From positions 6,475 through 70,474 of the forward strand of contig CAYYYS010000012.1 of NCBI GenBank assembly GCA_964476155.1: a stretch of DNA of 64,000 bases. Reading direction: 5' to 3'. This DNA is from an uncultured Fibrobacteraceae bacterium. GTDB lineage: Bacteria > Krumholzibacteriota > Krumholzibacteriia > LZORAL124-64-63. The translations under genes and the position numbers were made by a program. The notes beneath the pieces are model-generated. The model ran no database searches. It saw nothing but the letters and a program-made list of their open reading frames with translations, and had not been told where the DNA came from. Positions within the stretch are counted from its first letter, which is position 1. Every line of letters begins with the position of its first letter. Shown here one piece after another: positions 29,387 to 61,522 of the stretch.

Positions 29387-29840
29387 CAACCTGGCGGTTT
29401 CCTTGCAAGACCCGATAGCGGAACACACCGTATTGACGCACCCCGACGGCCGCGCCCTCATGACACCCCTGGCCGACGGCCGCTGGCGTTTGGCTATCGA
29501 AACAGATACGCCTTTCGCGTGGCCGCGGCCCGTGGCCTGGGAGACCGGTTACCCGCCAGCCTTGGTCAAGACGCTGATGAATGTGAAAGGCCCACGCCGG
29601 GTCATCGACGAGATCCGCCGCGACGAGGATCCCATCTATGTGGAGAACGACCTCAGGCACGACCTCTTCTCCTTCGTCGCGCCCGAGGACCTGGTCGGCC
29701 GAACAGCGCGCGGCCCGGCGTTTCTCGCGCTACGATCACCGCGGCGACACCTGGCCCGAATTGCTGCGCGCGGGCGTGCGCGGCGGCACCGGTGGCGAGA
29801 CGCTGGCGTTTCGCAAGGAGTCTTAACGAGAGAGTCTAAA

Positions 29841-32273
29841 ATGCGTACTATGCTTATTGCCGCCGTCGTCCTGCTGGTCGCCGTGTCCGCCGCGGCCATC
29901 CCCATCTCCGACCTGCACGTCAACTACGCCAACGGCACGCCGACCCTGCTGGGTCAGACGGTCACGGTGAGCGGCGTGGTCACGGTACCCACGTACCTGC
30001 TCAACGGCTATACGCTCGAGGTGTTCGTGCAGGACGACACGGGCGGCATCAACGTCTACGTGACCGGCGGCGCGTCGAGCTGGAACCTGGCCCTGGGCGA
30101 CAGCGTGACCGTCACCTCACGTGTGGCCCAGTACAACGGGCTGACCGAGCTGGGCACGGCCACCAGCTACACGACCATCACGAATCACGGCCCGGCTTCG
30201 GCCATACCCGAGCCACAGGCCATGAGCTGCACCAGCGTGAACGACGCCTTCCTGGCCAACAACCGCGACCCGGACGAGAGCCGGCTCGTGCGCCTGGACA
30301 ACCTGAACATCACCAGCGGCGCGTGGCCGGTGACCGCCGGCGGCAACACGGTACTCACGGTCAACGACGGCGGCGGGTCCTGTCTGCTGTACATCGACCA
30401 GGACACGGACCTGAACGGCAGTCCCGATCCCGGCGCCAACTTCTCGGTGATCGGCGTGATCAAGCAGTACGACTACTCGAGTCCCTACACGACGGGGTAT
30501 GAGGTCATGCCGCGCTACCTGAGCGACGTGTTCCCCACGAGCTCGGGTCCCGTGGTGACCGGCGACGTTACCGTGATGAACATCACGTCCACCGGGGCCG
30601 GCGTCCTCTTCTTCACCCAGGGCGACGGCAGCACCGAGGTGGAATACGGCCTGACGCCGAGCTACGGTCAGACCGCCGGCTTTCCCGACGTTCGTGTCAC
30701 CGCCCACGTGGTCACGCTGACCGACCTGGTGCCCAACTCGGTCTACTACTTCCGCGCCAAATCCACCAACGACTACGGCACCTCTTACGGACCCGACCAG
30801 GTCTTCGTGACCCCGAGCGAAATCCCCGGCGAGATCCACGTCTACATGAAAGGCTCGGCCGATCACGACTATTCCCTCGACGGCCTCACATTCGTGAACG
30901 ACAACGAATCCCTGTCGGGACGCCTGATCGACCTGATCGGCGACGCCGAAGCCTCGGTGGACGCCTGTCTCTACAGCTTCAGCCTGGACAGCGTGCGCGA
31001 CGCCCTGATCGCCGCCCACAACCGCGGTTGCCAGGTGCGCTTGATCATCGACCAGGACAACTCGCACGCCGACGCCGATGTCTGCCAGGCGGCGGGCATC
31101 CCCTACATCGACAGCGGCTTCGGGGGCAACCACGCCAGCGGCGCCATGCACAACAAGTTCGTGGTGATCGACGGACGCGACGTGGACAAGTACAACGACT
31201 GGACCTGGACCGGCAGCGCCAACATGAGCATCTCGGGCGACAACGACCTGAACAACGCCCTGGCCATTCGCGACTTCGGCCTGGCCCAGGCCTACACCCT
31301 GGAGTTCAACGAGATGTGGGGCAGCGACACCCAAACCGCCAACGGAACCCTGGCCCGCATGGGCGACGCCAAGCTGGACAACACGCCGCACGTGTTCACC
31401 ATCAACGGTCTCGACGTCGAACAGTACATGAGTCCCAGCGACGAGGTGACCGACCGCGTGATCGAGGCCATCGGCACCGCCGAGCAGAACATCTACTTCG
31501 CCATGCTGGCGTTCACCCACAACGACATTTCCGACGCCATGCGCGACCAACGCGACGCGGTGCCGACCCTGGGCCTGGCCGGTGTCTTCGAACAGGATCA
31601 GAGCGATTGCACCAGCGGCGGCGAGTACTGGCGCATGCATGGCGACGCCTGCGCGCCCGACCCCTGGTCGCCGGCGGCCGATGTGTGGCTGGACACCGCT
31701 CTGCCGGGCAGCGTCCTGCTGCACCACAAGTACCTGCTGATCGACGCGCCCGGCGATCCCCAGACCAGTCTGCCGAAAAGCGGCGGAGCCTTCGACGCGA
31801 TGGTCTTCACCGGCAGCCACAACTGGAGCTACAGCGCCGAATCGATCAACGACGAGAACACCCTGGTGATCCACGACTATGTAATCGCCAACCTGTTCCT
31901 GCAGGAGTTCGCGGCGCGTTACGCCGAGTCCGGCGGGTCCGAGCACCTGGGCTGGGCCACCGGTGTGGAGGACGGCCCCGACGCGGCGCCCCGACTGCTC
32001 GCCGGCCTGCGCGCCTGGCCGAATCCCTTCAATCCCCAGGTGAGTTTCTCGTTCATGACCGGCACGACGGCCCGGGTCGACGTGAGCGTGCACGACGCGC
32101 GGGGGCGGCTTGTGCGCTCGCTATACGGCGGGAAGGACCTGGCGGCTGGACTGCATGTGCTGGGGTGGGATGGACGCACCACTGACGGGCGGGCGGCCGC
32201 GAGCGGCGCCTATTTCCTGCGCGTGAGTGGCGGCGGGGAAACGATCACCGAACGGGTGACGTTGGTTCGCTGA
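29841..32273 (+). CDS. Secreted phospholipase-D superfamily enzyme (two HKD motifs) with FN3-like domain and C-terminal T9SS/FlgD-Ig-like sorting domain
   Basis: Signal peptide MRTMLIAAVVLLVAVSAAA at an internal ATG. HKD motifs AMHNKFVVIDG and LLHHKYLLIDAP. FN3-like ...VYYFRAKSTNDYG.... CTD AWPNPFNPQVSFSF...VSVHDARGRLVRSL...GAYFLRVSGGGETITERVTLVR. The in-frame upstream 146 codons (29403..29840) look like a decayed leader ORF. Confidence 0.85.
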   Translation: MRTMLIAAVVLLVAVSAAAIPISDLHVNYANGTPTLLGQTVTVSGVVTVPTYLLNGYTLEVFVQDDTGGINVYVTGGASSWNLALGDSVTVTSRVAQYNGLTELGTATSYTTITNHGPASAIPEPQAMSCTSVNDAFLANNRDPDESRLVRLDNLNITSGAWPVTAGGNTVLTVNDGGGSCLLYIDQDTDLNGSPDPGANFSVIGVIKQYDYSSPYTTGYEVMPRYLSDVFPTSSGPVVTGDVTVMNITSTGAGVLFFTQGDGSTEVEYGLTPSYGQTAGFPDVRVTAHVVTLTDLVPNSVYYFRAKSTNDYGTSYGPDQVFVTPSEIPGEIHVYMKGSADHDYSLDGLTFVNDNESLSGRLIDLIGDAEASVDACLYSFSLDSVRDALIAAHNRGCQVRLIIDQDNSHADADVCQAAGIPYIDSGFGGNHASGAMHNKFVVIDGRDVDKYNDWTWTGSANMSISGDNDLNNALAIRDFGLAQAYTLEFNEMWGSDTQTANGTLARMGDAKLDNTPHVFTINGLDVEQYMSPSDEVTDRVIEAIGTAEQNIYFAMLAFTHNDISDAMRDQRDAVPTLGLAGVFEQDQSDCTSGGEYWRMHGDACAPDPWSPAADVWLDTALPGSVLLHHKYLLIDAPGDPQTSLPKSGGAFDAMVFTGSHNWSYSAESINDENTLVIHDYVIANLFLQEFAARYAESGGSEHLGWATGVEDGPDAAPRLLAGLRAWPNPFNPQVSFSFMTGTTARVDVSVHDARGRLVRSLYGGKDLAAGLHVLGWDGRTTDGRAAASGAYFLRVSGGGETITERVTLVR

Positions 32274-33647: not shown

Positions 33648-33812
33648 ATTTGGTCACCTTTGCTGCGTTCTGTTCTCGCCAGATCAGAGCTTTTAGTCCA
33701 TTGTGTGCTACTCGATTCCCGTGAGCTACCGCCCTCATTTTGTGCCCAAAACGAATGAGAGACAACCCGGTTCTTTGTGAACGCAACGCGTCTTCGAGAC
33801 GACGGCTTGGAC

Positions 33813-35969
33813 ATGACACACGATCGCCCCACACACAGCGCGCTTGCCGCCGGCCTGTTGTTCGTATGGATGCTGATACCTTGCGTCGTGTTTGGCGTGT
33901 CCAACGGCGAGGTGCCGATCGACTCGTGGATGCTGGAGGGCAAGGGCATCCCCTGTCGCGGTCACGCCAAGGGCCTGGGACCGAACAAGGCCCCCGAAAA
34001 CCATCCGTCCCAGGACCTGATCGATGTCCTGCACTACGCGAATTATTTCATGCTGAATTTCGCCACCCAGGACATCCAGGGCGCACAGCTGATCACCTTC
34101 TCTCCTCTGCAGGGGGCCGTGACCGAGCTGGTCCTGGATTTCGTTGACGAGATGTCTTTTACGTCGGCGGCCCTGAACTCCTCCAATTACGCGCCTCTCC
34201 CTTTCGTTCACGCCAACGACCGCGTGACGATCTCACTGCCCTTTGAGGGCCAGGCCACCACCGATACGATCACGGTCATACTGACCTTCGAGGGCGCGCC
34301 GCAGCCTGACGGAATCTACGGTTTCCGGTTCGTCGAGCGCGAAGACGGTAAACTGGTGGCGGCCAACGTCAGCGAGCCCTGGAGCGCGCGTTCATGGTGG
34401 CCCTGCAAGGACGACCCGCGCGACAAGGCCACGTTCGGCACATCCCTCTATTCGCCCGCCGGCGTGACCGGTGTCTCGAACGGAGTAGAGCTTTCCTCGG
34501 GGCCCGTAAACCCGTACCTGGACGATGACGAGAAAACACGTCTCGAAGATCACCTGGCGGTTCTGCTCGGCGACAAGACCGAGTATGTGGCCGCGTACTG
34601 GCAGGAAACACATCCCATCTCCACGTATCATTTTTCGGTGGCGGCCTCCGAGTACACGCGCCTGGACGACATCTACATCGACGCCCAGGGCGACACGTTG
34701 CAGATCACCAATTACATCTATCCCGATCTGGTCCCCCAGGCCGAGATCGACTTCGCGCCGCTGTCGGACATGCTCGCCTGGTGCGAGGACACGTTCGGGG
34801 CCTACCCCTTCCCTGGCGAGAAATACGGTCATGCCCTCTTCGAGTGGGACGGCGCCATGGAGCATCCCACCGTCGCCACTTATTCGTCCCACTTTGTGAC
34901 CGGCGACAACAATTTCGACTCGATTGTCATGCACGAACTGGCCCATCAGTGGTTCGGCAATCTCGTCACCTGCGCCGACTGGTCCCATACCTGGCTGAAC
35001 GAGGGGTTCGCCACCTACGCCGAAGGTCTCTGGCGCGAGCACTCCGTGGGCGGGAGTTCGCTGAAATGGTTCATGTACCAGCGCAGCATTTTCACCTGGT
35101 GGGGGGGGGCCCTGGTCCGCGACATCCGCAATGACGACCCCTGGTACTTCTTCGCCAACATGGTCTACTACAAGGGTGCCTGGCTGCTGCACATGCTGCG
35201 TCGCGAGATCGGCGACACGGATTTTTTCGAGATTCTCAGACTCTATCCCCACGCGCGCGGCATGTCCTACGGTACCGCGACGACCGACGAATTCGTGCGC
35301 TTCTGCGAGGTATACCTGCGACGCAGCATGTCGACGTTCTTCAACCAGTGGCTCTACCGCGAAACCTATCCCGAACTGAACGTGCAATGGATGAATACCG
35401 GAACCGGGGGCGCTTCGAGCATATGGCTCGACATCAACCAGATCCAGCCCACCGACCCCTATGCCGGTGACGAACCTTTCCTTTTCAAGATCGACGTCCG
35501 CCTGGAAACCGCCGGCGGCAACGTCACCCACGTCGTCGAAGTGGACCGCCGCCACATGTTCGTGACGCTGGACGCACCGGCCAACGTGGACAACGTGGTC
35601 CTCGACCCCGACGGCTGGATGCTCTTCACTGCGGACGTGACCACGGCGGTGGATCCCCTCGCTTCCACCACCCGCGTATTGCGCCTGCGCAAGCCGGAGC
35701 CCAACCCCTTCACCGGACGCGGCATCATCGCCTGGACGACGCCCTTGTCCGGCGGCGACGAGCTGGCCGTCTACGACACGCGCGGCCGGCGCCTGCGCGA
35801 CTGGAAACTCTCCCCCGCCGAACCCGGACAGCGCAGCATCGCCTGGGACGGTCGCGACCGTAACGGTCGTCGCGTGTCGGCGGGCACCTATGTCTACACC
35901 GTCATCTCCCGCCCCACCGACGGCGGCGCGCCCCTGCGCGAAACCGGCAAGATCACACTCGCGCGCTGA
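33813..35969 (+). CDS. Secreted M1 family aminopeptidase (aminopeptidase N-like) with C-terminal T9SS/FlgD-Ig-like sorting domain
   Basis: Signal anchor MTHDRPTHSALAAGLLFVWMLIPCVVFG. GAMEH exopeptidase motif, HEXXH zincin motif VMHELAHQWFGN and the downstream LNEGFATY Glu. CTD ...PEPNPFTGRGIIAWTT...ELAVYDTRGRRLRDW...GTYVYTVISRP...GKITLAR. Confidence 0.9.
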   Translation: MTHDRPTHSALAAGLLFVWMLIPCVVFGVSNGEVPIDSWMLEGKGIPCRGHAKGLGPNKAPENHPSQDLIDVLHYANYFMLNFATQDIQGAQLITFSPLQGAVTELVLDFVDEMSFTSAALNSSNYAPLPFVHANDRVTISLPFEGQATTDTITVILTFEGAPQPDGIYGFRFVEREDGKLVAANVSEPWSARSWWPCKDDPRDKATFGTSLYSPAGVTGVSNGVELSSGPVNPYLDDDEKTRLEDHLAVLLGDKTEYVAAYWQETHPISTYHFSVAASEYTRLDDIYIDAQGDTLQITNYIYPDLVPQAEIDFAPLSDMLAWCEDTFGAYPFPGEKYGHALFEWDGAMEHPTVATYSSHFVTGDNNFDSIVMHELAHQWFGNLVTCADWSHTWLNEGFATYAEGLWREHSVGGSSLKWFMYQRSIFTWWGGALVRDIRNDDPWYFFANMVYYKGAWLLHMLRREIGDTDFFEILRLYPHARGMSYGTATTDEFVRFCEVYLRRSMSTFFNQWLYRETYPELNVQWMNTGTGGASSIWLDINQIQPTDPYAGDEPFLFKIDVRLETAGGNVTHVVEVDRRHMFVTLDAPANVDNVVLDPDGWMLFTADVTTAVDPLASTTRVLRLRKPEPNPFTGRGIIAWTTPLSGGDELAVYDTRGRRLRDWKLSPAEPGQRSIAWDGRDRNGRRVSAGTYVYTVISRPTDGGAPLRETGKITLAR

Positions 35970-41368: not shown

Positions 41369-43396
41369 ATGATCGATCGCACTCGTCGTGTCTTCACAGC
41401 CACGCCGCTCTTTGCCCTGACGCTGCTGGTCGCATCCGCGTCCGCCCAGACCCCGCTGGACATCGGCAACTGGACGCTCGATCAGGAAAATTCGACACAA
41501 AGCTACACGATCCCCGGCGGCACCATCGTGCAACCCGGCGGCTACGTGATCATCTGCCGCGACCAGGACCAGGCGGCCTTCGAGAGCTACTACGGCGTGT
41601 CGTTGGGTTCGAACGTGACCTACCTGCGCTCGAACAACTCGGCGCCCATGATCAATGGCGACGAGACCTACGAACTGCGCAACGCGTCCAGCGGTCTGGT
41701 GGACGGGCCCACCGACGCGATCACGACCACGCGACGCTCGTACCATCGCGCCAATCCCGAGAGCCAGGCCTGGACGGCCACCAACGAGGTCCCGTCCCCC
41801 GGCTCGGGAGTCGAGGCGCCGGACGGCGTGATGTCGGGCCTGGTCATCAGCGAAGTGACCGACCCCGACTCGTATACGTACGAGTTCGTGGAGCTGTACT
41901 ACGACGCGTCCACCGGCAGCGGCAACCAGGTGCCGGTGATCAGCGGCGCCGGCGTCGTGCCGACCGATCCCGTGCAGTACGACGACCTGACCGTCTCGGC
42001 GACGGTGACCGACAGCGACGGCACGGTGACGGCGGTCACCTGCTACTACCGCACCGACGGCGGCACTTTCCTGACCCAGACGATGACCAACACCGGCGGC
42101 GACACCTACGCGACCACGTTCTACAGCCAGCCCGGCAACGTGGACTTCGACTACTACCTGCGCGCCCAGGACGACGAGAGCGGCGTGTCCTACGCCCCGG
42201 CCGGCGCCCCCGCGAGCTACTACACGGTGTGGATCGAGGGCCCGCCCACGGCCGATCGCGTGGTGCTGTTCGACCATTCACACGACCAGGACGCCGGCAG
42301 CAACGGCAACTGGCGCGTCGACAACAACTATCCCGATCCCTACCCCACCGATCCCACGAGCGAGACCGCGTGGAGCGGCCAGCTTTCCGAGTGGGGCTAT
42401 GAGCTCTATCTCGCGGGACATACGGTGCAGAGCAACACGGCGGCCCTGAGCACGTCGGTTCTGTCGGGCGTCGACCTGCTGATCATCCCCGAGCCCCAGA
42501 ACCCGTTCACCGCCGCCGAGAAGGAAGCGGTGCGGCAGTTCGTCTACGACGGCGGCTCGCTGTTCATGGTCGCGGACCACAATTCGAGCGACCGCAACAA
42601 CAATGGCTGGGACAGCCCGAGCATCTTCGGCGGCTACTCCGTACCGCACATCACCGTGCCGGTAGGCGGCGACACCGAGACCTTCGCCGGCGCCCTTTTC
42701 GGCCTGCACTTCCACGTGAAGGACGAGGGCAACAACTCGATTACCGGCACCTTCACCAACATCACCGCCGCCACGGGCAACCCGGTCATCGAGGGCGACT
42801 ACGGCGACGTGAACGCGGTCATCTACCACGTGGGCAACGTCATGACCCTGTGGCCGACCGCCAACCCGTACCTGACCGATGTGGGCTCGTTGATCAGCAA
42901 GGCCGAAGGCTCACCCCACGTGGCGGCCTGGTCACGCTACGGCAGCGGCAAGATCGTGGGTTACGGCGACTCGTCGAGCATGGCCGACGGGACCGGCACC
43001 GAATCCCACGAGGACAACTGGACCGAAGCCGGCAGCAACAACCGGGAATTTTTCCTGAACGCTTGCGTGTGGTTGTTGGATGATCCGGGGACCGGGGTTG
43101 AGGACGAGGTGCCGTATAACCTCGGATTGGGTCTGCGGGTTTATCCGAATCCGTTCAATCCGCGGACGACGGTTTCGTTTGTGATGCCTCGGGATGGGGT
43201 TGTCGAGGTTACGGTGCATGATTTGCAGGGACGGAATTTGCGGACTTTGCATAGCGGATACTTGACGGCCGGGGCGCAAGGGATGACCTGGAGCGGGATG
43301 GACAACGCGGGGCTACCGATGGCCAGCGGCGTCTACCTGGTGCGAGCGACAGGAGTGGGGCTGGTCAATTATACAAAGGTCGTGCTAGCCCGATAG
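41369..43396 (+). CDS. Secreted protein with N-terminal lamin-tail-like domain, central ThuA/GATase1-like region and C-terminal T9SS/FlgD-Ig-like sorting domain
   Basis: RBS GAGGAAG. Signal peptide MIDRTRRVFTATPLFALTLLVASASA. LTD motif GLVISEVTDPDSYTYEFVELYYD. CTD ...YPNPFNPRTTVSFVMPRDGVVEVTVHDLQGRNLRTL...GVYLVRATGVGLVNYTKVVLAR. Confidence 0.8.
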   Translation: MIDRTRRVFTATPLFALTLLVASASAQTPLDIGNWTLDQENSTQSYTIPGGTIVQPGGYVIICRDQDQAAFESYYGVSLGSNVTYLRSNNSAPMINGDETYELRNASSGLVDGPTDAITTTRRSYHRANPESQAWTATNEVPSPGSGVEAPDGVMSGLVISEVTDPDSYTYEFVELYYDASTGSGNQVPVISGAGVVPTDPVQYDDLTVSATVTDSDGTVTAVTCYYRTDGGTFLTQTMTNTGGDTYATTFYSQPGNVDFDYYLRAQDDESGVSYAPAGAPASYYTVWIEGPPTADRVVLFDHSHDQDAGSNGNWRVDNNYPDPYPTDPTSETAWSGQLSEWGYELYLAGHTVQSNTAALSTSVLSGVDLLIIPEPQNPFTAAEKEAVRQFVYDGGSLFMVADHNSSDRNNNGWDSPSIFGGYSVPHITVPVGGDTETFAGALFGLHFHVKDEGNNSITGTFTNITAATGNPVIEGDYGDVNAVIYHVGNVMTLWPTANPYLTDVGSLISKAEGSPHVAAWSRYGSGKIVGYGDSSSMADGTGTESHEDNWTEAGSNNREFFLNACVWLLDDPGTGVEDEVPYNLGLGLRVYPNPFNPRTTVSFVMPRDGVVEVTVHDLQGRNLRTLHSGYLTAGAQGMTWSGMDNAGLPMASGVYLVRATGVGLVNYTKVVLAR

Positions 43397-47227: not shown

Positions 47228-48190
47228 TTACCGGTACAGACTCTTCACATCGCCCCAGGCCTTTTCATCGGTCGGGATGACGATGGTCAGGTACGCAACC
47301 CCACCATCGGAGTCGAACTGGTAGGCGTTGTTGTCCGCCACCATCGGGGCACCGTAGGCCGGGTGGCTCGTGATTGTCAGAGGCGCGTCCGTCATGAGGT
47401 TGTCGAACGTCATCAGGTCCAGGCTGTAGAGCAGACCCACGTTGCCACCGAAGACGGGCAGGTAGGAATACAGACCCATCTCGACGCCGGTGGTCAGCGA
47501 ACCCAGAACCAGGGCGTCGGCGTGCACGGCGTTGCCGAGCATGATCAACGGATCCAGCTCCAGCTTGAAGGCGGCGCCGCCAACCAGCATCTCGGCGTTC
47601 GAGACGAGGATATAGGCCTGGTGGATGACACCGACACCACCGTTGGTAACCAAGGCAGGCTCGGTACCGGCCTCATTGAAGTACACACTGATCTTCGGCG
47701 TACTGTGGATGGTCAGGCACGAGGTCAGACCCTCGGCATCGTACTGGACGCCACCGCTATCGGCGACCTTGGGAGCATCATAGTTGGGATGGGCACCCAC
47801 GGTGATCGTGCCGCCCAGCACGGACGTGGGCGAGTAGAAGTTGAACGTGGCCAGGAGGGCCGTGTCCGTGGGGTCAAAGACCGGAATAAAGCTGTACAGA
47901 CCGACTTCACAGCCGCTCTCGTCGCCGAGATACAGACCCTGATCCGTCATCGGACTCCAGCTGTACATAAGGTCCGGATCGATGTCGACGGAGAACGCGG
48001 CACCACCGACCAGCATGTCGGCGTCCTTAATCATGACATAACCCGTACACATGTCGGGCAAGAGCTCGACGGCGTAGTCGAGGTTGGTGCCGGCTTCGTC
48101 GAAGTAGACACCGATGGTGGGCTGGGCGACCGACAGGCTCGCGAAGGCGAGGACCGCAACGGCCGCGAAGGCACATTTCCAATTCTTCAT
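47228..48190 (-). CDS. Secreted protein with internally duplicated about 150-aa domain and conserved C-terminal ...AWGDVKSLYR tail (paralog family A)
   Basis: Signal peptide MKNWKCAFAAVAVLAFASLSVAQP at an internal ATG (RBS AAGGGA). Repeats start IGVYFDEAGTNLDY... and ISVYFNEAGTEPAL.... The C-terminal motif is shared with 56536..57123 and 59634..60044. Confidence 0.8.
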   Translation of the reverse strand: MKNWKCAFAAVAVLAFASLSVAQPTIGVYFDEAGTNLDYAVELLPDMCTGYVMIKDADMLVGGAAFSVDIDPDLMYSWSPMTDQGLYLGDESGCEVGLYSFIPVFDPTDTALLATFNFYSPTSVLGGTITVGAHPNYDAPKVADSGGVQYDAEGLTSCLTIHSTPKISVYFNEAGTEPALVTNGGVGVIHQAYILVSNAEMLVGGAAFKLELDPLIMLGNAVHADALVLGSLTTGVEMGLYSYLPVFGGNVGLLYSLDLMTFDNLMTDAPLTITSHPAYGAPMVADNNAYQFDSDGGVAYLTIVIPTDEKAWGDVKSLYR

Positions 48191-52499: not shown

Positions 52500-53195
52500 A
52501 TGCACTGGTCTGCAAAGAAACTGCTCGACTGGTATTGTACCGTGCGCTGGGTAGACCCCAAGTCGGAGGGGTCGTCTGAGAGCGCACCCACCGAAGCGGG
52601 GGCGTTTCCGAACGAACCCGAGTTGGCTATCCAGAAAGAGAAGATCCGGCTGGCCAAGATCGATCCCGAAACATTCGATTTCTTTTATGTGCACTACTAC
52701 CACCGGATCTTCAGTTTCTGTTATGGGCGGACCCGGCATCGAGACGTGGCGGAAGACCTGACATCCGAGACCTTCACGAAGGCGCTCGACAACATCGGTA
52801 AATACCGCTGGTCCGGAGTGAGTATCGGAGCCTGGCTCTACAGGATCGCCGCAAACGAGATCAAGGGGTACTACAGGACCAGGGCCCGGCGACCCGAAGC
52901 AGAGATACCGACCAACGTTCTGGGCGAGGATCTGCTGGTGGGCAACGAACCGAGCCCGGAACGAAGAGTGGAATTGGCGCAGGAGCGGGCCAAGCTCGCT
53001 GAATACGCGTCGCGACTCGATCTCGACGAACAGAACTATCTGAACCTGCGCTTTCGCGAGGGTTTGTTGATCCGGGAGATCGCGGCGATCGCAGGGAAAC
53101 CCGAAGGATCCATCGCCGCACGAATACACCGAAGTCTTGTCAAGATGCAGAAGATGGGGGAAGAGGAAGCGGAGCAAGGTAATGAGAACCGTTAG
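52500..53195 (+). CDS. ECF-type RNA polymerase sigma-70 factor
   Basis: RBS GGGAGA. Region 2 ...FYVHYYHRIFSFCYGRTRHRDVAEDLTSETFTKAL.... Region 4 ...LNLRFREGLLIREIAAIAGKPEGSIAARIHRSL. Confidence 0.85.
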   Translation: MHWSAKKLLDWYCTVRWVDPKSEGSSESAPTEAGAFPNEPELAIQKEKIRLAKIDPETFDFFYVHYYHRIFSFCYGRTRHRDVAEDLTSETFTKALDNIGKYRWSGVSIGAWLYRIAANEIKGYYRTRARRPEAEIPTNVLGEDLLVGNEPSPERRVELAQERAKLAEYASRLDLDEQNYLNLRFREGLLIREIAAIAGKPEGSIAARIHRSLVKMQKMGEEEAEQGNENR

Positions 53196-53895
53196 CGACA
53201 TGGAGCAGAGACTGCGGGCCACATCCGTGGATCCCGGCGTTCGACAGGAACACTTCGACGCTTTGCGCGCCGAGCTGCAGTCTCGTATGCGCACACGTCG
53301 ATATCGACCGCTGTTTGTGGCGGCTGCTTCGATTGTCTTCATATGCCTGGTGACGTTCCAGGATCAGCCGCTGGAGAGCTTCAACTATCGGCTCGACTAC
53401 TTCGCGGGCGAGGAAAATTCAATTTATTCGTTCATGTCCCACAGGGATGCGTCAACGTCGTGGGGATTTTCCAAATCTGTCGGAGATCTCGAGGCATATG
53501 AACGAGCGCCTATGACCCCGGAAGAGATCGCCCACCGAATACACAAAACTGAAATCAGCCAGGCCATGTTCGAGGCCGGACTCCTCGAGCCGACAAGAGC
53601 ATATGGGCACACCTGGAAAGGACAAACGACGTATTCTGTAATCTTTACAGGTGAATCCGGAGGGCTCGAATTGCAATACACCTCATATATAGATGATATC
53701 ATCCACCCCGAACATACCGACTTCATGGTCAATCATTATGGCGATATCTACATGGCGGCCTTCCGGGGAGAGCTTTCGCCATACGCTTCACAGGTTATTG
53801 CCCATGATAGCCGCGAGTTCATCCTTCACGGCTGGCGTCACGAGGATCCCGTTTACGGCGAAGTCATTATCTGGACAACCCAAGATTTTAACTAA
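53182..53895 (+). CDS. Putative anti-sigma factor-like membrane protein (single TM, periplasmic domain)
   Basis: Overlaps the sigma stop by 14 nt. TM YRPLFVAAASIVFICLVTF. 170-aa periplasmic region with no recognisable domain. Confidence 0.5.
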   Translation: MRTVSDMEQRLRATSVDPGVRQEHFDALRAELQSRMRTRRYRPLFVAAASIVFICLVTFQDQPLESFNYRLDYFAGEENSIYSFMSHRDASTSWGFSKSVGDLEAYERAPMTPEEIAHRIHKTEISQAMFEAGLLEPTRAYGHTWKGQTTYSVIFTGESGGLELQYTSYIDDIIHPEHTDFMVNHYGDIYMAAFRGELSPYASQVIAHDSREFILHGWRHEDPVYGEVIIWTTQDFN

Positions 53896-55351
53896 CAAAA
53901 GTCGATTTCAGGAAGTCGAGGCTCCGCGGGTTGCGTGCCAGGAGCTCTACGTACATGCGCAGGGTTTCCGCCTGGCCGGTCCGCACCGTGGTGCAAACGG
54001 AATCCACCGCTTCCGGCTTCATTCCCCCCCGCTCCCAAGATTCGGCCAACACCGAGAAACAAGCCGAGCAGAGTCGACACGCCCAGCAATCCAAACAGTG
54101 TTCGCCGAATGATTGCTTGAAGCGACTCCAGAGGACTTCCACAGCCTCCAGGTCGAGACCTTCGCTCACGTGACCGATGATCAGCCCGTCTCCCACCCGC
54201 TCACACGGTTGATAGGCCCCATCGGCACGCACGTGCAGGCGACGTTGGCCGGGCCGGCAGCAACCGCCTGGTGAGATCGCGTCGCCCAGCGTCTCGCGGA
54301 AACGATGATAGAAGGAAACCAGTCCATCGTCGAAAAGAGCAGCCAAAATGGGGCCGGGAGTCCGACCGGCCACACGGGTATCGACATAACGCTGTCGAGC
54401 TGCGAGCAGATCGTCACGAAAACGACCCTTGTCTTCCGTCGTGATGCCGATATCGCCCGGATTGATCCCGGTGAGGTCGACGATGCTGGCGCCAACAGAC
54501 GGCGCCTCTTTGATTCCCGCCTTCCGGTAGGGCGGAAAGTCCGCAAAGTAGGTGTCGACACGCTCAACCTCTGTGGGCGGCGCCAGGGTTACCTGGAAGC
54601 GCAACTGCTCGTGGGCGCGCGATGAAACGGCCAGGAGTCGGCCTATTCCCGCTTCGACTTCGGCATGTGACGGGCCTCCGCCCCGATGAGATCTATGTCG
54701 GTCATGAATGTCCGTGGGGCCGTCAAGACTGATCTGCAGATGGACGCCCTCGGTCACGATGAAAGCGCAGACCTCTTCACTGAGCAGGGTGCCGTTCGTG
54801 TCGATTATGAAGCGGTAGTCGTCGCACGGTCCCTCTCGACGCACCAGATCGACGATCTCGCGGATCAGATCGAACTCGAGAAGAGGTTCACCGCCGTAGA
54901 ACGAGATGGACGGTGTTTCCACATCGCGGCTGCGCGTCAGAAACTCGCGCACGGCCTTGCGTGCCACACTCGGTGACATCCGTTCATCCTGGTGAGATCG
55001 AATCCAGCCCAACTCATGGCCGTGGGGACAATATCCGCACCGCAGGTTGCATTGCTCGCTCACCGAGAGCGTAAGCTGCCCGACCTGGCCGTCGTACCCA
55101 TTCACATCGTGGCAGGCCGGGCATGTGTCGAGGGCCGTTGGTCGGTGAGACAGGAAGAGATTGTGGGCCTCGCGAGCTTCGGCGATTTCACGGTGGGCCG
55201 CCTGCAGGTCTTCGGCCGAAACCCCGGCACCGGCAGGACCGCCAAGCGCGACGGCCATGGCCGAATCGACGGAGATCACATCGCCCGAGTTTACATCATA
55301 GGCATATCGATCTTCATCATGGTCGAAAACGAAGCAAAAAGCGTCTGGCAT
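53888..55351 (-). CDS. Radical SAM / SPASM-domain peptide-modifying enzyme with N-terminal RRE-like extension (putative RiPP maturase)
   Basis: CNLRCGYCPH (CxxxCxxC) about 100 aa from the N-terminus. C-terminal SPASM Cys clusters CCRPG...C...CLDCWACRLCSACFS. Located 12 nt downstream of the Cys-rich precursor ORF. ATG at 55351 (track uses TTG at 55360). Confidence 0.9.
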   Translation of the reverse strand: MPDAFCFVFDHDEDRYAYDVNSGDVISVDSAMAVALGGPAGAGVSAEDLQAAHREIAEAREAHNLFLSHRPTALDTCPACHDVNGYDGQVGQLTLSVSEQCNLRCGYCPHGHELGWIRSHQDERMSPSVARKAVREFLTRSRDVETPSISFYGGEPLLEFDLIREIVDLVRREGPCDDYRFIIDTNGTLLSEEVCAFIVTEGVHLQISLDGPTDIHDRHRSHRGGGPSHAEVEAGIGRLLAVSSRAHEQLRFQVTLAPPTEVERVDTYFADFPPYRKAGIKEAPSVGASIVDLTGINPGDIGITTEDKGRFRDDLLAARQRYVDTRVAGRTPGPILAALFDDGLVSFYHRFRETLGDAISPGGCCRPGQRRLHVRADGAYQPCERVGDGLIIGHVSEGLDLEAVEVLWSRFKQSFGEHCLDCWACRLCSACFSVLAESWERGGMKPEAVDSVCTTVRTGQAETLRMYVELLARNPRSLDFLKSTFVS

Positions 55352-55363
55352 GTCTACCAAGGT

Positions 55364-55561
55364 CTACGTTGGTACGGTGGATTCGAACATCCTGGTATCT
55401 ACTTCATTCCCGGGCGTTCGAGTCGGCGAAGCGGCGGCTTGATCCCCCGTCCTGCAGTTGCAGTTGCATGAGCAGGTGCAGCTGCATGCCATTGCGTTGG
55501 GCTGTTCTTCGGTTGCCGTAGTGGGCTGATGGCCCGGATCCACTTTTTTGTACATAGTCAT
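55364..55561 (-). CDS. Candidate RiPP precursor peptide with alternating Cys core CSCTCSCNCNC
   Basis: MTMYKKVDPGHQPTTATEEQPNAMA-CSCTCSCNCNC-RTGDQAAASPTRTPGNEVDTRMFESTVPT, 65 aa. GGGAG RBS is placed 6 nt before the second ATG (55555). Preceded by an AT-rich promoter region. Confidence 0.6.
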   Translation of the reverse strand: MTMYKKVDPGHQPTTATEEQPNAMACSCTCSCNCNCRTGDQAAASPTRTPGNEVDTRMFESTVPT

Positions 55562-55869: not shown

Positions 55870-56529
55870 TTAGCGACGGCGGGCTGCCAGCTCCACATCG
55901 CCGTGCCGATGCTCCGGTCCATCTCCGTGTCGATGCACGGGGCCCAAGGTCTCGTCGTGGCTCAGGATCTCCCACCCACGCAGCAGATCACGGATTTCCC
56001 GACGCGCCAGATAGGTGCGGTAGTCACCGTCCGGACTGCGGAAGCTATGGCGACCAGCCGGCGTCCACGTGTCCCGGTAGGTCTCGTACGAGGGATCGTC
56101 CACGTGCCAGGCGACCAGCAGAAGGATCGCGCCAGGGGCGGTCCAGCGCTGGAAACGATACAGGAGGCCGGCGATCTCGGCGCGTGAGAGGATCTGTAGC
56201 AGACCGAAGCATAGCACCGTGTCGAAGGGCGCCGACGGCTCGTAAGCCAGGACCCCTCCCCGCCACAGTTCGAGATCGAGACCCGCCTCGCGAGCCCGGC
56301 GCTCGGCCTGGGCGATGGACGCGGCTGACGGGTCGATCCCGGTCACACGCATGCCGGCCGCGGCCAGGGGCAGCGCGTTGCGTCCCTGTCCCACACCCAG
56401 GTCCAGCACGCGACCGCCAGGCTCGAGGTCTCCGGCGAAGCGCGTCAGGAGCGGCGCGGGTTCGGAGCCGAAATAATAGGTGTTGTCGCCATAGGCTTTG
56501 TCGTAATCGTCGGTGCGTTTATCCGCCAT
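55870..56529 (-). CDS. Class I SAM-dependent methyltransferase (TehB/TPMT-like)
   Basis: ...GRVLDLGVGQGRNALPLAAAGMRVTGIDPS... motif I. 219 aa. Co-directional and immediately upstream of the precursor/rSAM pair. Confidence 0.8.
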   Translation of the reverse strand: MADKRTDDYDKAYGDNTYYFGSEPAPLLTRFAGDLEPGGRVLDLGVGQGRNALPLAAAGMRVTGIDPSAASIAQAERRAREAGLDLELWRGGVLAYEPSAPFDTVLCFGLLQILSRAEIAGLLYRFQRWTAPGAILLLVAWHVDDPSYETYRDTWTPAGRHSFRSPDGDYRTYLARREIRDLLRGWEILSHDETLGPVHRHGDGPEHRHGDVELAARRR

Positions 56530-56535
56530 GGGACG

Positions 56536-57123
56536 TCAATCGCCATAGATGGTTTTTACGTCGCCCCAGGCCCGGGGCTCGTCTTCGGCGGCCGAGTTGA
56601 TGGTGAAGGAGGGGAGGTCGTCGGCGCCACAGGGGCTACAGGGGTGCACCATACCGACATCCGAGGCGTAGCCGGGATTGTCCGGCAGGTCGAGGGAGCC
56701 TGGAACCGGTTTGATGTAGAAACGGATGGAATCTTCGTTGAAGGTCAAGACTGAGATCGAGAGCAGCGGAATCACATTGGCGCTGTTGGGCGTGAGGGGA
56801 CTCAGGGCCGTCCCGACCTGGTATTCGGGGCTCGAAGCGAAGTTGAGAGCGCTCTCGCCCAGAATCTGCCAGGTCGCCGACATGTTCTCCTCGCCCGCGA
56901 CCTCGATATAGGCTTGCCAGCCCAGCGCCTGGGATTGCGAAGGATTGACGACGCACAGATAGATCGTCTGCTGCGTGAAGGCGGCGAGGTCGATATTGCC
57001 GCCACACGTGGACTCGGATTCGTTATCCGCGCAGAAACACATGACGTCGGACTGGGCCACCGCGACGGTGGCGAAGACGAGAACGAACAGGCATGTCGAA
57101 AGCACGCCATATACACGATTCAT
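56536..57123 (-). CDS. Secreted Cys-containing domain protein with C-terminal ...AWGDVKTIYGD tail (paralog family B)
   Basis: Signal peptide MNRVYGVLSTCLFVLVFATVAVA (RBS AAGGGAA). Domain QSDVMCFCADNESESTCGGNIDL... is paralogous to the N-terminus of 57277..59595. Confidence 0.75.
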   Translation of the reverse strand: MNRVYGVLSTCLFVLVFATVAVAQSDVMCFCADNESESTCGGNIDLAAFTQQTIYLCVVNPSQSQALGWQAYIEVAGEENMSATWQILGESALNFASSPEYQVGTALSPLTPNSANVIPLLSISVLTFNEDSIRFYIKPVPGSLDLPDNPGYASDVGMVHPCSPCGADDLPSFTINSAAEDEPRAWGDVKTIYGD

Positions 57124-57276
57124 CACGGTATTCCCTTCTGCGATCTGCGAGCGGAGCCCCGGTCGGTTTCTCACGACCGGGGCGAGTCCTTGTATCAGGA
57201 TAAAAGAACCGCCTGCAGGAAACAAGGCCCAGCCGTGGGGCCGGGCCTGTTTGTGGGCTGTTTGCTGCCCTGGCTA

Positions 57277-59595
57277 CTACTTCACCAGGGTCAATTTGGC
57301 CATGGTGTCGGTCCGGACACCATCCAACAGGAGTACGGCGAAGTAGGTTCCGCCGGCGAGTTCGCGACCGGTGTCGTCCAGGCCGCGCCAGGTCTCTGTG
57401 TAAGTCCCTGCCGTTTGTGTGCCCAGATCAAATGCGCGCACGCGGCGGCCACGCAGATCGTAGATCTCGAGGCCGAGCCGACCGGGTAGGCTGCTGGTCA
57501 GCTTGATCTCGGTGCTGGGGTTGAAGGGGTTCGGGTGACTGGTGATGGCGTGGGCGACGGGTCGGTCGGGAGCCGCGGTCAACGCGTCCGGGGAGCGGAA
57601 GGTCACCAGTAAGGGTTCATCGCCTACTTCCAGTACGACCGAGGACTCGTCCTGCATGGACATCACGACCACGCGGTTTTGGTGGGGTAGGTAGATCTGG
57701 GGGTCGGTTTTGTCTGGTAGGGCCGTGCTGTCCCAGTTCAAGACGACCGGGCCGGGTTCCGGGGCTGTTAAGGTGGCGGTCCAGTCGTAGGGCTCCTCGA
57801 TGGGGGCGCGGATGTCGGTGAGGAAGGATGAGCCTACGGCGAGGTCCCATTCGGGGTGTTCGAAGCGGAGTTTGGCCGCGCTTCGGGGGACTGGGGACGC
57901 GGGGGGTTCTGGGAGGTCGTAGCGGGCGTCGAAGGATTCCCGGGCTTGGGAGTTGAATCCCAGGGAGACGCCTTCGGAGCGGCCGTCTACAGAAAAGGCC
58001 AGGCGCCAGGCGTCTGGAGAGTCGAAATCGTCTGTCTTGGGGGTTGTGCCTGGGGGGATTACGGTGGCGTAGTTGAACTTGAGCTGGATGTAACTATCGT
58101 GACAGGCCACCCAGTATCCATACCATGTGTCGAATGTCACTGCATCTACATATGACTCCGAGGCTGAATCGTAGCCGAAGGGGAAGGCCGAGACCCAGCC
58201 TGCGCTCACGGCTTCGCCCCAGGTACGTATATCGTATCCGGATCGTGTCACCATAACACCGTCAAGATCCGTCGAAATCCATAACGGATAGCTAACCATG
58301 TTCCAACCGGGGGTCAGCGGAACGTTGACCTCACTGGTATTCAAGGTTCCACCAGGGATATCCCAGGTGTACGCCTGTGTCGCACCAATCCAATAGGCCT
58401 TGAGCAGGTCGGCCGCATCGCCGAGCTCAAGGAGTCTGTATCCGTTGCCGGGATCATGATCGTAAATGAAAGTCGACCACGCCGCGTTTTGCAGAAACGC
58501 CTGGGAGATAGTCCCGGGACTTGGCGGGATCATCGGCAGGCCGGCCAAAGACCAGCCCGCCGGCAGGTCCCGGGACTGGGGCTCCGGCCCGACCATACCA
58601 GGGGGCCCCACCCACAACTCCAGAGTGCGTGGGATGCCGGGAGTCGGCATATAGTTGAAGCTGTAGCCGATCATACGGACATCCACGGTCCAATCGTCGA
58701 CGGGATCATGGAGATACAAGCCCCAGCCATCATCGAACAAGTCATCCGGCGCGAAATCGAGAGTCATTTGCTGGCTGCGATCGGTCAGGACTTCGAAGGA
58801 CCAGACCTTGAGGTTGTCCAATGGATTATAGGGCTCGCGGTAATCGGTCATGAAGCGGTCGCCCAGGGGTGATGCCCATTCGGGATGCGGGAAATAGAGG
58901 GTCACGTATTCGCTTGGCTGTATCGGCGGTTCGGGGGCATCAAAGGGGGGATCATAAATGTCGGTCGCATTGGTGATCGCGCCGGCGATATTGCCGTTGT
59001 CGTCAAGATTGTCGACATGAGCGCTTAGCTCGACGGAGAACTGCGGAAAGGACGGAGGGGGATCTTCGCCGTTGATGGTGAAGACTGGGATGTCGGGATC
59101 GCCGGAGCAGGTTACGCAAGGAATAGAGAAGCCTGCTTCCGGAAAATAGCCCGGGCTGTCAGGGTAAGACGACGAATCCGGTACTCGCCGAACATGGATA
59201 TTGATTGGGGCGGACGTGTCGATCACCGTAAGCGCTATTTGCAACAACACCATACTTCCATCTGCGTTGGGATGCATCGGGCTCGCGCCAAGTCCGACGA
59301 TATAATTGGAGCCATATCCGATATTGAGGCCTCCGCCAAGAACCTCCCAATCACCGAAGTAGGTCACCGTCGTTACGATCTCGACTTGGGCCTCCCAGGC
59401 CGAAACCTGATAAGCACTTGGATTAGTAATGAGCAGATACAGATTCTGCGTGTGGTACATGTCGACATCCACATTTCCGCCACAAGAGGAATAGCTCTCG
59501 CTATCGGTGCATACACACATCACATCCTGCTGGGCAACGGCGACACCGAAAGCCACGAGACTGAACAGGCAAATAGTGGCTACTAGATTTCGCAT
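57277..59595 (-). CDS. Large secreted protein: N-terminal family-B Cys domain, internal repeats, C-terminal T9SS/FlgD-Ig-like sorting domain
   Basis: Signal peptide MRNLVATICLFSLVAFGVAVA. N-terminal domain QQDVMCVCTDSESYSSCGGNVDV.... CTD ...HPNPFNPSTEIKLTSSLPGRLGLEIYDLRGRRVRAF...GTYFAVLLLDGVRTDTMAKLTLVK. Confidence 0.8.
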   Translation of the reverse strand: MRNLVATICLFSLVAFGVAVAQQDVMCVCTDSESYSSCGGNVDVDMYHTQNLYLLITNPSAYQVSAWEAQVEIVTTVTYFGDWEVLGGGLNIGYGSNYIVGLGASPMHPNADGSMVLLQIALTVIDTSAPINIHVRRVPDSSSYPDSPGYFPEAGFSIPCVTCSGDPDIPVFTINGEDPPPSFPQFSVELSAHVDNLDDNGNIAGAITNATDIYDPPFDAPEPPIQPSEYVTLYFPHPEWASPLGDRFMTDYREPYNPLDNLKVWSFEVLTDRSQQMTLDFAPDDLFDDGWGLYLHDPVDDWTVDVRMIGYSFNYMPTPGIPRTLELWVGPPGMVGPEPQSRDLPAGWSLAGLPMIPPSPGTISQAFLQNAAWSTFIYDHDPGNGYRLLELGDAADLLKAYWIGATQAYTWDIPGGTLNTSEVNVPLTPGWNMVSYPLWISTDLDGVMVTRSGYDIRTWGEAVSAGWVSAFPFGYDSASESYVDAVTFDTWYGYWVACHDSYIQLKFNYATVIPPGTTPKTDDFDSPDAWRLAFSVDGRSEGVSLGFNSQARESFDARYDLPEPPASPVPRSAAKLRFEHPEWDLAVGSSFLTDIRAPIEEPYDWTATLTAPEPGPVVLNWDSTALPDKTDPQIYLPHQNRVVVMSMQDESSVVLEVGDEPLLVTFRSPDALTAAPDRPVAHAITSHPNPFNPSTEIKLTSSLPGRLGLEIYDLRGRRVRAFDLGTQTAGTYTETWRGLDDTGRELAGGTYFAVLLLDGVRTDTMAKLTLVK

Positions 59596-59633: not shown

Positions 59634-60210
59634 TTATCTATTCGTATCAAAGAGCGCCTTTACCTCCCCCCAGACCGCATCGTGTGACGCGGTTGGATCG
59701 TCCCAGATCAAGGTCACGATGAGTTCCATATGTGCGGAATCCAGCGGCACGAAAATATCCGCCGGCAAACTGTCTCGCTTGGGCCGCCCTTCGGTCGGAG
59801 TGACGATAACCGCCAGTGGCAGATCCCAGCCCTCCAAGGCCTCGAACGACAGGTAGGCGGTTTGGCCGACCTGATCGGTGTCGATGATCAGCATCCAGTC
59901 CTCGGTCTCGTCTTCCATCTGCAGGGTCGGCCGGAATTCGTCACGCCAGAGGTTGGGAAAGGGTCCCGCGTAACCCGTCATTACAAAATCCAGGCAGAGA
60001 TGGTCTGACGGGGGGGGGCGGTGGTTGGGGCTGATCGTATCCATCGACCAACATCAGGGCGTCGTTGTATACGCCGAAGTGCTGGAGGTCGGAGTCGATG
60101 GCGCCGGTCGTCGCCTGTAGGGAGATGACGATGGATTGGGCGGTGGCGGGCGCGATCAAGCACATCGCGCTCGCGAGCAGGACCGAGACAAAAACTACGA
60201 ATCTATTCAT
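59634..60210 (-). pseudogene. Secreted family member ending in ...AVWGEVKALFDTNR, interrupted by a frameshift at a poly-C/G(9) tract (possible phase-variable gene)
   Basis: ORF 59941..60210 (signal peptide MNRFVVFVSVLLASAMCLIAPATA ... QPQPPPPP) and ORF 59634..60044 are in different frames and overlap at the G9 run 60010..60018 (coding PPP). Confidence 0.5.
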
Positions 60211-60496
60211 GTCGATAATCCGCTTATACGTTTTGGGCGATCCGCGTCTGATTATAGCAGATCTGTGGATTATATGCGTATCGATTTACCTAATAATGGG
60301 GGTGTTTGTACGGGAGGCATTTCTGTGCTTGGTTGGAGGCTTTCGGTGCGCATAAATCATACCCGCGTGCGCCTGTAACTTATAACATAGCATGATGTTA
60401 GCGCTTGCGCTGCTGGTGTTTTTCGGCTATATTGTCTCCATCGAATGCATCCGTTTCGACCTCCCGCGAAACGCTCGTTTTCTGGGAGGTTTTTCT

Positions 60497-61522
60497 ATGT
60501 CAGCCAGCGAAATCCATGCTCGTCTTCAAGCGGCTTTGAGTGAACTTCAGCGGGCGGAGAAGAACGCCGTTCTGTTGTTCGGCGAGATTCTTCGGCGCAA
60601 GTTGTATCGGGATCTTGGTTACTCATCTATTCAGGTTTATGCCGCCGAAGCGCTCGGGTTCTCACCGAGTAAGACTTCGCAGTTTGTGCGACTGGCGGGG
60701 GCGCTCGAAGAGCTGCCGCAGCTGCGTCGATCGGTGGCGGCCGGTGAGTTGGGGTGGACCAAGGCGCGGGAGGTGGCCAAGGTGGCTACGCCCGAAAGTG
60801 AAGAGAGATGGATCGCCGAGGCGGAGCGGTCGAGTAGTCGCAAGTTGGAGCAAACGGTGCGGGCAACACGCAAGCGGGCGCGCCTGGCGCCGCAAGTTGC
60901 GGAGCTGCCTGCGCTGGACCTGGGCGAGCCATCGCCAGCGCTGCCCACGGACGCTCCGCTCTCGGTGAGTACAAAACTCACGGCCGAACAGTACGCCCGC
61001 CACGAGGCTCTGTTCGAGACGATCCGCAAACGAGGCAACCGAAAAAACTCGACAGTACGGGGTATGGACCGCGCCGAGTTGTTGCTCGTCGCGCTGAACG
61101 ATCTGGCGGAGAAGCTCGCGCAAGAGCCGGAAACCAAGATCGTCTCCAGCCCGCCTTATCAAGTCGTAGTTTACACGTGTAAAAAGTGTGGCAAGTCCGA
61201 GGTGCAAACCGACCGCGGTCCAAAGCCCATATCAACTGAAGTTGTGCATTGCGACGCCGTCATCCATGAGCCTAGCCAGCCCAATCGCTCGACCATCCCG
61301 CCGAAAACCCGTCAGGCTGCCATGATCAAGGCCAACCATCGTTGCGAGACACCGGGATGCGGGCGGACACGGTTCCTGGAGGTTCATCATCGGCGTCCGC
61401 GATCGCTGGGGGGCAGCAACGAGGTGACCAACCTCCAGGTGCTATGTTCGAGTTGCCACCAGCTGGTCCATCAACGAGGACAATCGCAACCGGCACAGCA
61501 TCAATATGAGAAAACGGGGTAA
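60497..61522 (+). CDS. HNH endonuclease (DUF222-HNH type)
   Basis: RBS GGGAGG before the internal ATG. C-terminal ...CETPGCGRTRFLEVHHRRPRSLGGSNEVTNLQVLCSSCHQLVH (HNH with Zn Cys). Confidence 0.8.
   Translation: MSASEIHARLQAALSELQRAEKNAVLLFGEILRRKLYRDLGYSSIQVYAAEALGFSPSKTSQFVRLAGALEELPQLRRSVAAGELGWTKAREVAKVATPESEERWIAEAERSSSRKLEQTVRATRKRARLAPQVAELPALDLGEPSPALPTDAPLSVSTKLTAEQYARHEALFETIRKRGNRKNSTVRGMDRAELLLVALNDLAEKLAQEPETKIVSSPPYQVVVYTCKKCGKSEVQTDRGPKPISTEVVHCDAVIHEPSQPNRSTIPPKTRQAAMIKANHRCETPGCGRTRFLEVHHRRPRSLGGSNEVTNLQVLCSSCHQLVHQRGQSQPAQHQYEKTG

Follow-up and report, generated by a model that had tools for sequence, protein, structure and literature searches.

The window analyzed here is a stretch of 64,000 nucleotides from an uncultured Fibrobacteraceae bacterium (contig CAYYYS010000012.1, positions 6,475 to 70,474), in which two neighboring genes on the minus strand encode proteins that begin alike and end differently. 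The short gene (56536..57123) codes for a protein of 195 amino acids (aa) and the long gene (57277..59595) for one of 772 aa. A preliminary description of the sequence had taken the two products for paralogs that share an N-terminal cysteine domain and carry different C-terminal tags, and both open reading frames (ORFs) were indeed found at these positions. BLASTP aligned aa 7-183 of the short protein with aa 5-180 of the long one at 41% identity (73/179 positions, E 3e-40), and the similarity is thus not limited to signal peptides or low-complexity sequence; the stretch common to both proteins after their signal peptides amounts to ~155 aa. The pair itself is an ordinary case of tandem paralogs, which exposes two unannotated things: a family of cohesin-like modules, and a widespread C-terminal tag that we refer to as the tail.

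The short protein, whose ATG start is also used by orthologs P0002-P0007, consists of a signal peptide, the shared module and the tail. Its signal peptide (aa 1-23, 57055..57123, minus strand; MNRVYGVLSTCLFVLVFATVAVA, followed by QSD), as read directly from the sequence, starts with a basic n-region, continues with a hydrophobic core and has AVA ahead of the Q, and the AlphaFold model places a helix at aa 5-17. The protein ends in ...EDEPRAWGDVKTIYGD at the stop codon, with the linker and tail occupying aa 178-195 (SAAEDEPRAWGDVKTIYGD; 56539..56592, minus strand) and the tail core WGDVKTIY at 56545..56568. Between the long and the short gene lie 153 nt, which include a terminator-like hairpin (57225..57248, minus strand; matched by consensus), composed of a 10-bp stem with 8 G-C pairs and a following T-rich run.

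Upstream of the long gene sits a third gene of the cluster (59634..60210, minus strand), which encodes a signal peptide, a module that we call X, and a tail (...AVWGEVKALFDTNR before the stop codon) and is split by a frameshift in the window. Its intact 185-aa ortholog (L001:1136-1693), which ends in AAWGEVKSIYDDE, aligns to it by tblastn over two frames. The frameshift falls in a run of 9 C (~60008-60018) within a poly-Pro stretch. It may have arisen by misassembly of the homopolymer; alternatively, the gene may be a pseudogene, or one for a surface protein that undergoes phase variation by strand slippage. The cluster therefore reads, in order, X plus tail, then the long protein with cohesin-like module, X, central region, second X and C-terminal domain, then cohesin-like module plus tail; the two small tail proteins each reproduce, in free form, one of the two modules with which the long protein begins. 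Some relatives, such as L005, lack the long paralog.

A shared module with a predicted cohesin-like fold

The common module spans aa 25-177 of the short protein (56593..57051, minus strand) and aa 23-176 of the long protein (59068..59529, minus strand), where it is matched at E 7e-56 and E 9e-53, respectively, by a hidden Markov model (HMM) built without signal peptide or tail. Word-indexed homolog searches retrieved only 7-8 close orthologs, all of ~195 aa and all with the tail; the family was then defined by a full HMM scan of 1.84 billion representative proteins, which yielded 280 representatives at E<=1e-3. That the shared domain is uncharacterized, as first proposed, is borne out by the databases: none of 85 short family members matches any Pfam or NCBIfam model, the cohesin model PF00963 included (E<=0.01), a Pfam scan of either paralog gave no cohesin match at E<=1, and a profile search of PDB sequences with the module found nothing below E 0.35.

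The AlphaFold model computed from the 85-sequence alignment is a beta-sandwich of high confidence (predicted local distance difference test, pLDDT, 91; predicted template modeling score 0.81), with pLDDT 96-98 over aa 40-175. When this model was compared with the PDB by Foldseek, cohesins made up more than 40 of the top 50 matches, each with probability 1.0, template modeling (TM) scores of 0.45-0.66 (normalized by target) and E-values of 4e-4 to 1e-2; an earlier model from a shallower alignment had also given cohesins. The shared module is therefore cohesin-like by its predicted fold only, and it is this beta-sandwich that forms the signature of the family.

The conserved cysteine pattern that the preliminary description ascribed to the domain holds for the paralogs and their close orthologs, in which C29, C31, C40, C162 and C165 are invariant, but not for the wider family: the CxC pair is present in ~15 of 85 members, G-x-Y being found at those positions in most of the 85, and C40, C162 and C165 are found in 36/85, 34/85 and 7/85, respectively. 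We thus rejected the cysteine motif as a domain-defining feature; it is a trait of a small local clade, and the term "Cys domain" is inapt. In the short family, conservation is highest at the lysine of the tail (98.8%).

The long protein and its C-terminal domain

The long protein is built of a signal peptide (aa 1-21, MRNLVATICLFSLVAFGVAVA followed by QQD, again read from the sequence), the cohesin-like module, a first X module (X1, aa 190-280; 58756..59028, minus strand), a central region, a second X module (X2, ~aa 531-598; 57802..58005, minus strand) and a C-terminal domain (CTD) at aa 684-772 (57280..57546, minus strand), which ends in ...AKLTLVK. X1 is homologous to the 185-aa tail protein of the adjoining gene: an HMM made from the pair of 185-aa proteins matches aa 190-280 of the long protein (independent E-value, i-E, 1.4e-7), and picks out the corresponding region in 9 further long CTD proteins (i-E between 1e-6 and 1e-11). 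X2 is an internal repeat of X1, with a local alignment score of 104 as compared to 32.5 +/- 5.5 in 500 shuffles (z = 12.9).

The CTD is of the FlgD-Ig-like kind known from type IX secretion systems (T9SS). PF13860 (FlgD_ig) matches aa 707-751 at E 5.7e-9, its score of 36.3 bits exceeding the cut-off of 27, and a CTD HMM made from family members covers aa 684-772 (E 7e-30); the type A sorting domain model TIGR04183 scores 15.7 bits, under its cut-off of 23. The claim that the two paralogs have different C-termini, the short one ending in the WGDVK tail and the long one in a T9SS-type domain, was hence confirmed. This type of domain is treated as a type IX secretion signal and anchor, and in the phyla discussed here FlgD_ig CTDs are presumably used by the T9SS. 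The occurrence of T9SS CTDs outside Bacteroidota has been proposed for Fibrobacter succinogenes (PMC6851124).

Tail and C-terminal domain as mutually exclusive endings

To the division between the two paralogs corresponds a strict division within the family. In a census of the architectures of its 156 best representatives, 90 proteins of <=230 aa end in the tail and 47 longer ones end in a FlgD-type CTD, while none carries both; a single tail protein is longer (247 aa), and most of the remaining representatives are fragments. The CTD proteins hold 1-4 copies of the module, the first of which directly follows the signal peptide in 45/47. The alternation that had been described as a natural experiment on two tags is therefore real and extends well beyond the locus, but the experiment is not a clean one, since the long class has ~500 extra residues, including the two X modules and the central region.

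The tail is a sequence of ~18 aa with the consensus P-V-P-T-E-x-x-[TS]-W-G-x-V-K-[SA]-L-Y-R-COOH. It is made up of an acidic, Pro-rich linker and a core of [TSA]-W-G-x-V-K-x-[LI]-[YF], after which 0-2 residues follow in 88/91 family members, with no hydrophobic stretch. Within the window, a motif scan detected WG[DE]VKx[LI][YF] within 7 aa of the stop codon in three ORFs. Besides the two tail genes of the cluster, there is one for a 320-aa protein (47228..48190, minus strand), which has a signal peptide, two divergent cohesin-like modules (aa 25-134, i-E 1e-5, and aa 167-299, i-E 1.5e-4, with the domain HMM) and a tail ending in ...EKAWGDVKSLYR.

The tail is portable and strictly C-terminal

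The distribution of the tail outside the module family was explored by scanning contigs from one genome per species for DNA encoding WGxVKxLYR followed by a stop codon, which retrieved more than 119 stretches. About 120 of the 130 pattern matches listed are true C-termini, in that they share a conserved upstream context that lies outside the search pattern: P(-8) V/T(-7) P/A(-6) T/V/A(-5) E(-4) x x T/S(-1). The named sources are Ca. Eisenbacteria, Krumholzibacteriia, Latescibacteria/ota, uncultured Fibrobacteraceae and metagenome-assembled genomes of Gemmatimonadota, with many others labeled simply "bacterium"; matches in Sediminibacterium and Doudnabacteria look like chance. In the source records, the tail proteins are called "hypothetical" or are unnamed. 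Some tail genes occur in arrays, with five in 8 kb in locus L032 and four in 8 kb in L027, and in both of these loci the tail often varies, with Ile (WGxIK) or Phe (LF, IF).

Among the matches listed, 110 tail proteins have >=100 aa. Only 10 of these 110 contain the cohesin-like module, and after removal of signal peptide and tail the set falls into 74 BLAST clusters, so that at least 74 unrelated families carry the tail. Pfam recognizes LTD in 5 of the carriers, CHRD in 2, and PD40, FG-GAP, Peptidase_M10, CBM_4_9, Cohesin and cupredoxin in 1 each, all of them extracytoplasmic domains, and ~90 carriers have no Pfam match. Signal-peptide-like N-termini are present in 99/110, and convincing lipoboxes in only 2-3. 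In spite of their division into 74 clusters, the carriers have a narrow interquartile length range of 206-253 aa, which may reflect either a size limit of the route they follow or a common single-sandwich architecture. In ~44% of the tail proteins a Cys is found 9-11 residues before the tail Trp.

The position of the tail was examined on 41 occurrences of the core motif in six-frame ORFs that had not been chosen by the search pattern, and in 37 of them the motif lies <=5 residues from the stop codon. At the DNA level, Gly, Val, Leu and Arg are written with varying codons and Ser with AGC as well as TCN, each of the three stop codons occurs, and no conservation was found in the DNA downstream of the tail genes; selection therefore acts on the protein. 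The tail is thus a portable, strictly C-terminal and lineage-restricted module under protein-level selection. These data also bear on the view that the tail is no independent tag at all, being either a part of the domain fold or an artifact of conserved DNA, for instance a terminator or repeat, where genes end. Its presence on 90 of the 101 cohesin-like proteins of <=230 aa, the remainder being mostly fragments, is what one would expect of a piece of the fold; however, the module is missing from 100 of the 110 tail proteins, in 74 unrelated clusters, and the long paralogs fold the same module without a tail. A repeat or terminator is rejected by the variable wobble positions and Ser codon families, the three stop codons and the unconserved downstream DNA. 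We consider this view, in either form, very improbable.

The exchange of tail for CTD recurs on other domains. In locus L116 (1-3637, minus strand), three tandem paralogs of 531, 221 and 460 aa (E 1e-11 to 1e-22) carry, in this order, a CTD, the tail and again a CTD; they are built on a different, CBM_4_9-like domain and make up a second case of alternative tags. Likewise, the tail proteins of L018 and L124 share ~300 aa with CTD proteins of L089 and L028. CTD genes lie within 8 kb of the tail gene in 31/119 tail loci.

Predicted structure of the tail and possible roles of its lysine

AlphaFold predicts a short amphipathic helix in the tail of the short protein (aa 186-193, pLDDT ~70). An outer-membrane beta-barrel signal was considered and rejected, given that the carriers have soluble-type domains (the sandwich of the short protein, with pLDDT 91; LTD, CHRD and CBM), that the tail is predicted to be helical and that its last residue is usually Arg.

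An amphipathic helix could in principle lie in the plane of a membrane leaflet as a peripheral anchor, in the manner of the C-terminal helices of PBP5/6 or the membrane-targeting sequence of MinD. The abundance of Trp, Tyr, Lys and Arg, which are typical of membrane interfaces, is in line with such a role, as is the fact that most carriers are not lipoproteins and would need another tether; a few of them, though, already have lipoboxes. The helix has only ~8-10 residues, and lipid-binding helices conserve amphipathicity rather than sequence, whereas the W, G, V, K, L and Y of the tail are near-invariant across phyla and its lysine is K and not R in 90/91 family members. With nearly all helix positions (W, G/S, V, K, L, Y) conserved and Lys hardly ever replaced by Arg, a specific binding pocket is indicated rather than generic lipid binding, and we regard a membrane anchor as unlikely.

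The extreme conservation of this lysine would also fit a covalent attachment, with the side chain serving as nucleophile or acceptor in a cross-link to peptidoglycan, lipopolysaccharide or another protein through an isopeptide bond. In the Braun lipoprotein (Lpp), which ends in ...YRK, the C-terminal Lys is joined to peptidoglycan, and the lysine near the end of the tail recalls this arrangement. It lies, however, 4-6 residues from the end and is not terminal, the neighborhoods of the 119 tail loci show no transpeptidase tied to the tail, and a conserved Lys could equally well make a salt bridge in a receptor pocket. Attachment of this kind therefore strikes us as quite improbable, even more so than a membrane anchor.

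The tail as a candidate address tag

The function of the tail as a sorting tag we infer from its distribution. We lean, with modest confidence, toward the interpretation that the tail is a C-terminal address tag, which on small single-module proteins takes the place of the CTD and is read by a protein receptor after Sec export. Under this model, the small tail proteins would be exported by Sec, a protein receptor would then recognize the tail, and the carriers would be directed to a destination in the cell envelope or at the surface; the CTD, as the alternative, would export and covalently anchor the large multi-module relatives. In one version of the model, the tail may be a minimal signal that is read by the same T9SS-type machinery or by its shuttle proteins, because the two tags alike close with L-hydrophobic-(K/R)-COOH and have a conserved Lys 5-6 residues before that end. 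The C-terminal consensus is K(-6)-[MIL]-x-L-[LVI]-[KR]-COOH for the CTD and K(-5)-[SA]-L-Y-R-COOH for the tail. In Porphyromonas gingivalis, translocation requires the motif at the C-terminal end of the CTD, in which a Lys is conserved; short C-terminal extensions are tolerated, and the signal of HBP35 maps to the last 22 residues (PMC11285876).

Several observations weigh against the address-tag interpretation or its T9SS version. The spacing between Lys and Leu differs by one residue between tail and CTD. T9SS CTDs have been reported to require an intact Ig-like sandwich (PMC11285876), and the tail is far too short to form one and is modeled as helical instead of as a strand; the confidence of that helix model is itself only moderate (pLDDT ~70). 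No T9SS machinery (SprA, PorV, PorU, GldK/L/M/N) was seen among the 42 proteins of the window, a small sample from which to conclude absence. Clustering of all ORFs of >=110 aa in the 119 tail loci (819 kb) yielded no candidate for a receptor, sortase or secretion component, the only recurrent neighbors being Ser/Thr kinase-TPR proteins, ABC-F ATPases, extracytoplasmic function (ECF) sigma factors and housekeeping genes. Finally, tail peptides matched nothing in Pfam and NCBIfam at E<=10, and we found the tail described neither there nor in the searchable literature, an absence which is not proof that nobody has described it.

The predicted cohesin fold of the module suggests a different reading of the same data, in which the tail helix is a docking peptide for cohesin-like modules and the whole forms a miniature cohesin-dockerin system: the long CTD proteins would be surface-anchored scaffolds, the tail proteins their cargo, and proteins with both module and tail adaptors or self-polymerizing subunits. 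The arrangement of the CTD proteins, with 1-4 modules of which the first almost always (45/47) comes right after the signal peptide, agrees with a scaffold; the tail proteins, like dockerin-bearing ones, are diverse in their domains, and conservation around nearly the entire circumference of the helix suggests a deep binding groove. In our locus, moreover, a tail gene lies on each side of the scaffold-like gene, and the bodies of these two tail genes duplicate the two modules with which the scaffold-like gene begins. On the other hand, the cohesin-like ORFs in the 119 tail loci (819 kb) are tail proteins only, with no CTD-bearing cohesin-like neighbor found; the tail lacks the duplicated Ca-binding architecture of ~60-70 aa that defines dockerins; and the module has no sequence relation to PF00963 and a fold match that is moderate (E about 1e-3). 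We therefore hold docking to be unlikely. The same low probability applies to its fullest form, in which tail and module would together make up a cellulosome-like system of Gram-negative bacteria, with T9SS-anchored scaffolds displaying 1-4 modules distally and a cargo marked by a single-helix "mini-dockerin" of ~10 residues. If true, this would amount to a new surface-display system across at least 5 phyla, with dozens to hundreds of docked small secreted proteins per genome, and the 195-aa paralog would be an adaptor or a chain-forming subunit.

Comparison with known systems

None of the described classes of sorting signal accommodates the tail. With LPXTG/sortase, PEP-CTERM/exosortase and GlyGly-CTERM/rhombosortase it shares a strictly C-terminal position on many unrelated Sec-exported proteins, restriction to certain lineages and many occurrences per genome. 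These signals, however, are tripartite, a transmembrane helix and a basic cluster being added to a motif, whereas in the tail a hydrophobic segment is missing. T9SS CTDs (TIGR04183/PF18962 type A, and PF13860-like variants) are represented here by the ~88-aa end domain of the long protein, which passes PF13860, and the tail occurs on the same domain families and has the same terminal L-hydrophobic-(K/R)-COOH with a nearby conserved Lys, but at ~18 aa and with a predicted helical structure it is unable to form an Ig-like sandwich. In the "choice-of-anchor" families of NCBIfam, one extracytoplasmic domain is likewise found with different C-terminal anchors in different proteins; in the present family, however, one of the alternatives is an apparently undescribed tag, and the choice strictly follows protein size and architecture.

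The cohesins of cellulosomal scaffoldins (PF00963; e.g., PDB 5lxv, 3ghp, 2vn6 and 2jh2) resemble the module in their beta-sandwich fold, and the module is likewise carried, in 1-4 copies, by large, presumably surface-anchored proteins. They differ from it in that the module, cohesin-like by its predicted fold, has no match to them at the sequence level (Pfam E>1; PDB profile E>=0.35), that its hosts are Gram-negative candidate phyla and not Firmicutes, and that no dockerins were detected here. The tail, for its part, resembles dockerin helices in that its short predicted helix might fit onto a sandwich of the cohesin type, but dockerins have ~60-70 aa with two Ca-binding loop-helix repeats, whereas the tail has one predicted helix of ~8-10 residues and no Ca-binding motif.

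Other genes in the window

Beyond the long paralog, FlgD_ig CTDs are found in five further proteins of the window, encoded at 3..3002 and 21071..23116 on the minus strand and at 29403..32270, 33777..35966 and 41369..43396 on the plus strand. Subtilase S8, RCC1-like propeller, PLD-like plus DUF5689, and M1 peptidase domains are carried by these proteins; the last of them, of 675 aa, has no other recognized domain, and passes TIGR04183 with 29.5 bits. The closest locus, L059, shows 58% identity over a CTD protein of 675 aa. The window thus encodes 6 CTD proteins, or about 1 gene in 7, and 3 tail proteins.

Downstream of the short gene, after a gap of 6 nt, lies a gene for a TehB-like methyltransferase (55870..56529, minus strand), followed by a 65-aa Cys-rich peptide (55364..55561, minus strand; core ACSCTCSCNCNC) and a radical S-adenosylmethionine (SAM)/SPASM enzyme (53888..55360, minus strand). 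The best match of this enzyme is CcpM, the "Cys-rich peptide radical SAM maturase" (TIGR04068), at E 5e-66 and below the cut-off. The three genes look like a cluster for a ribosomally synthesized and post-translationally modified peptide. The cluster adjoins the short gene in all relatives (L001-L005), and the Cys-rich variant of the cohesin-like module is found only in the clade of this locus.

The radical SAM cluster is adjoined on its other side by a gene for an ECF sigma factor (52500..53195, plus strand) and an overlapping ORF (53137..53895, plus strand) that probably encodes its anti-sigma factor. ECF sigma genes also occur near tail genes in 6/119 unrelated loci, which may only reflect their abundance. 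On the far side of the third cluster gene, a 376-aa protein (60392..61522, plus strand) has a C-terminal HNH region with a weak match to NF040563, the model of the RNA-guided endonuclease IscB (E 1.4e-11, far below the cut-off), and is probably a stand-alone HNH endonuclease.

Implications

A sharply defined tag of ~18 residues thus marks a large class of small secreted proteins, of which 3 fall within the 64 kb of the window and, elsewhere, as many as 5 within 8 kb. Separately, the cohesin-like module defines an unannotated family of 280 representative clusters, in which, among the 156 best representatives, short proteins with tails and long proteins with CTDs are strictly split. In the cases of LPXTG, PEP-CTERM and the T9SS CTD, the signal led in turn to a dedicated envelope machine being discovered. 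The phyla that carry the tail are represented in culture by few members or none. Being short and portable, the tag lends itself to tests by reporter fusions. If the tail is indeed an address label, it would point to a second surface or secretion route in these organisms, or to a minimal T9SS signal, and would provide a simple rule for predicting their secretome.

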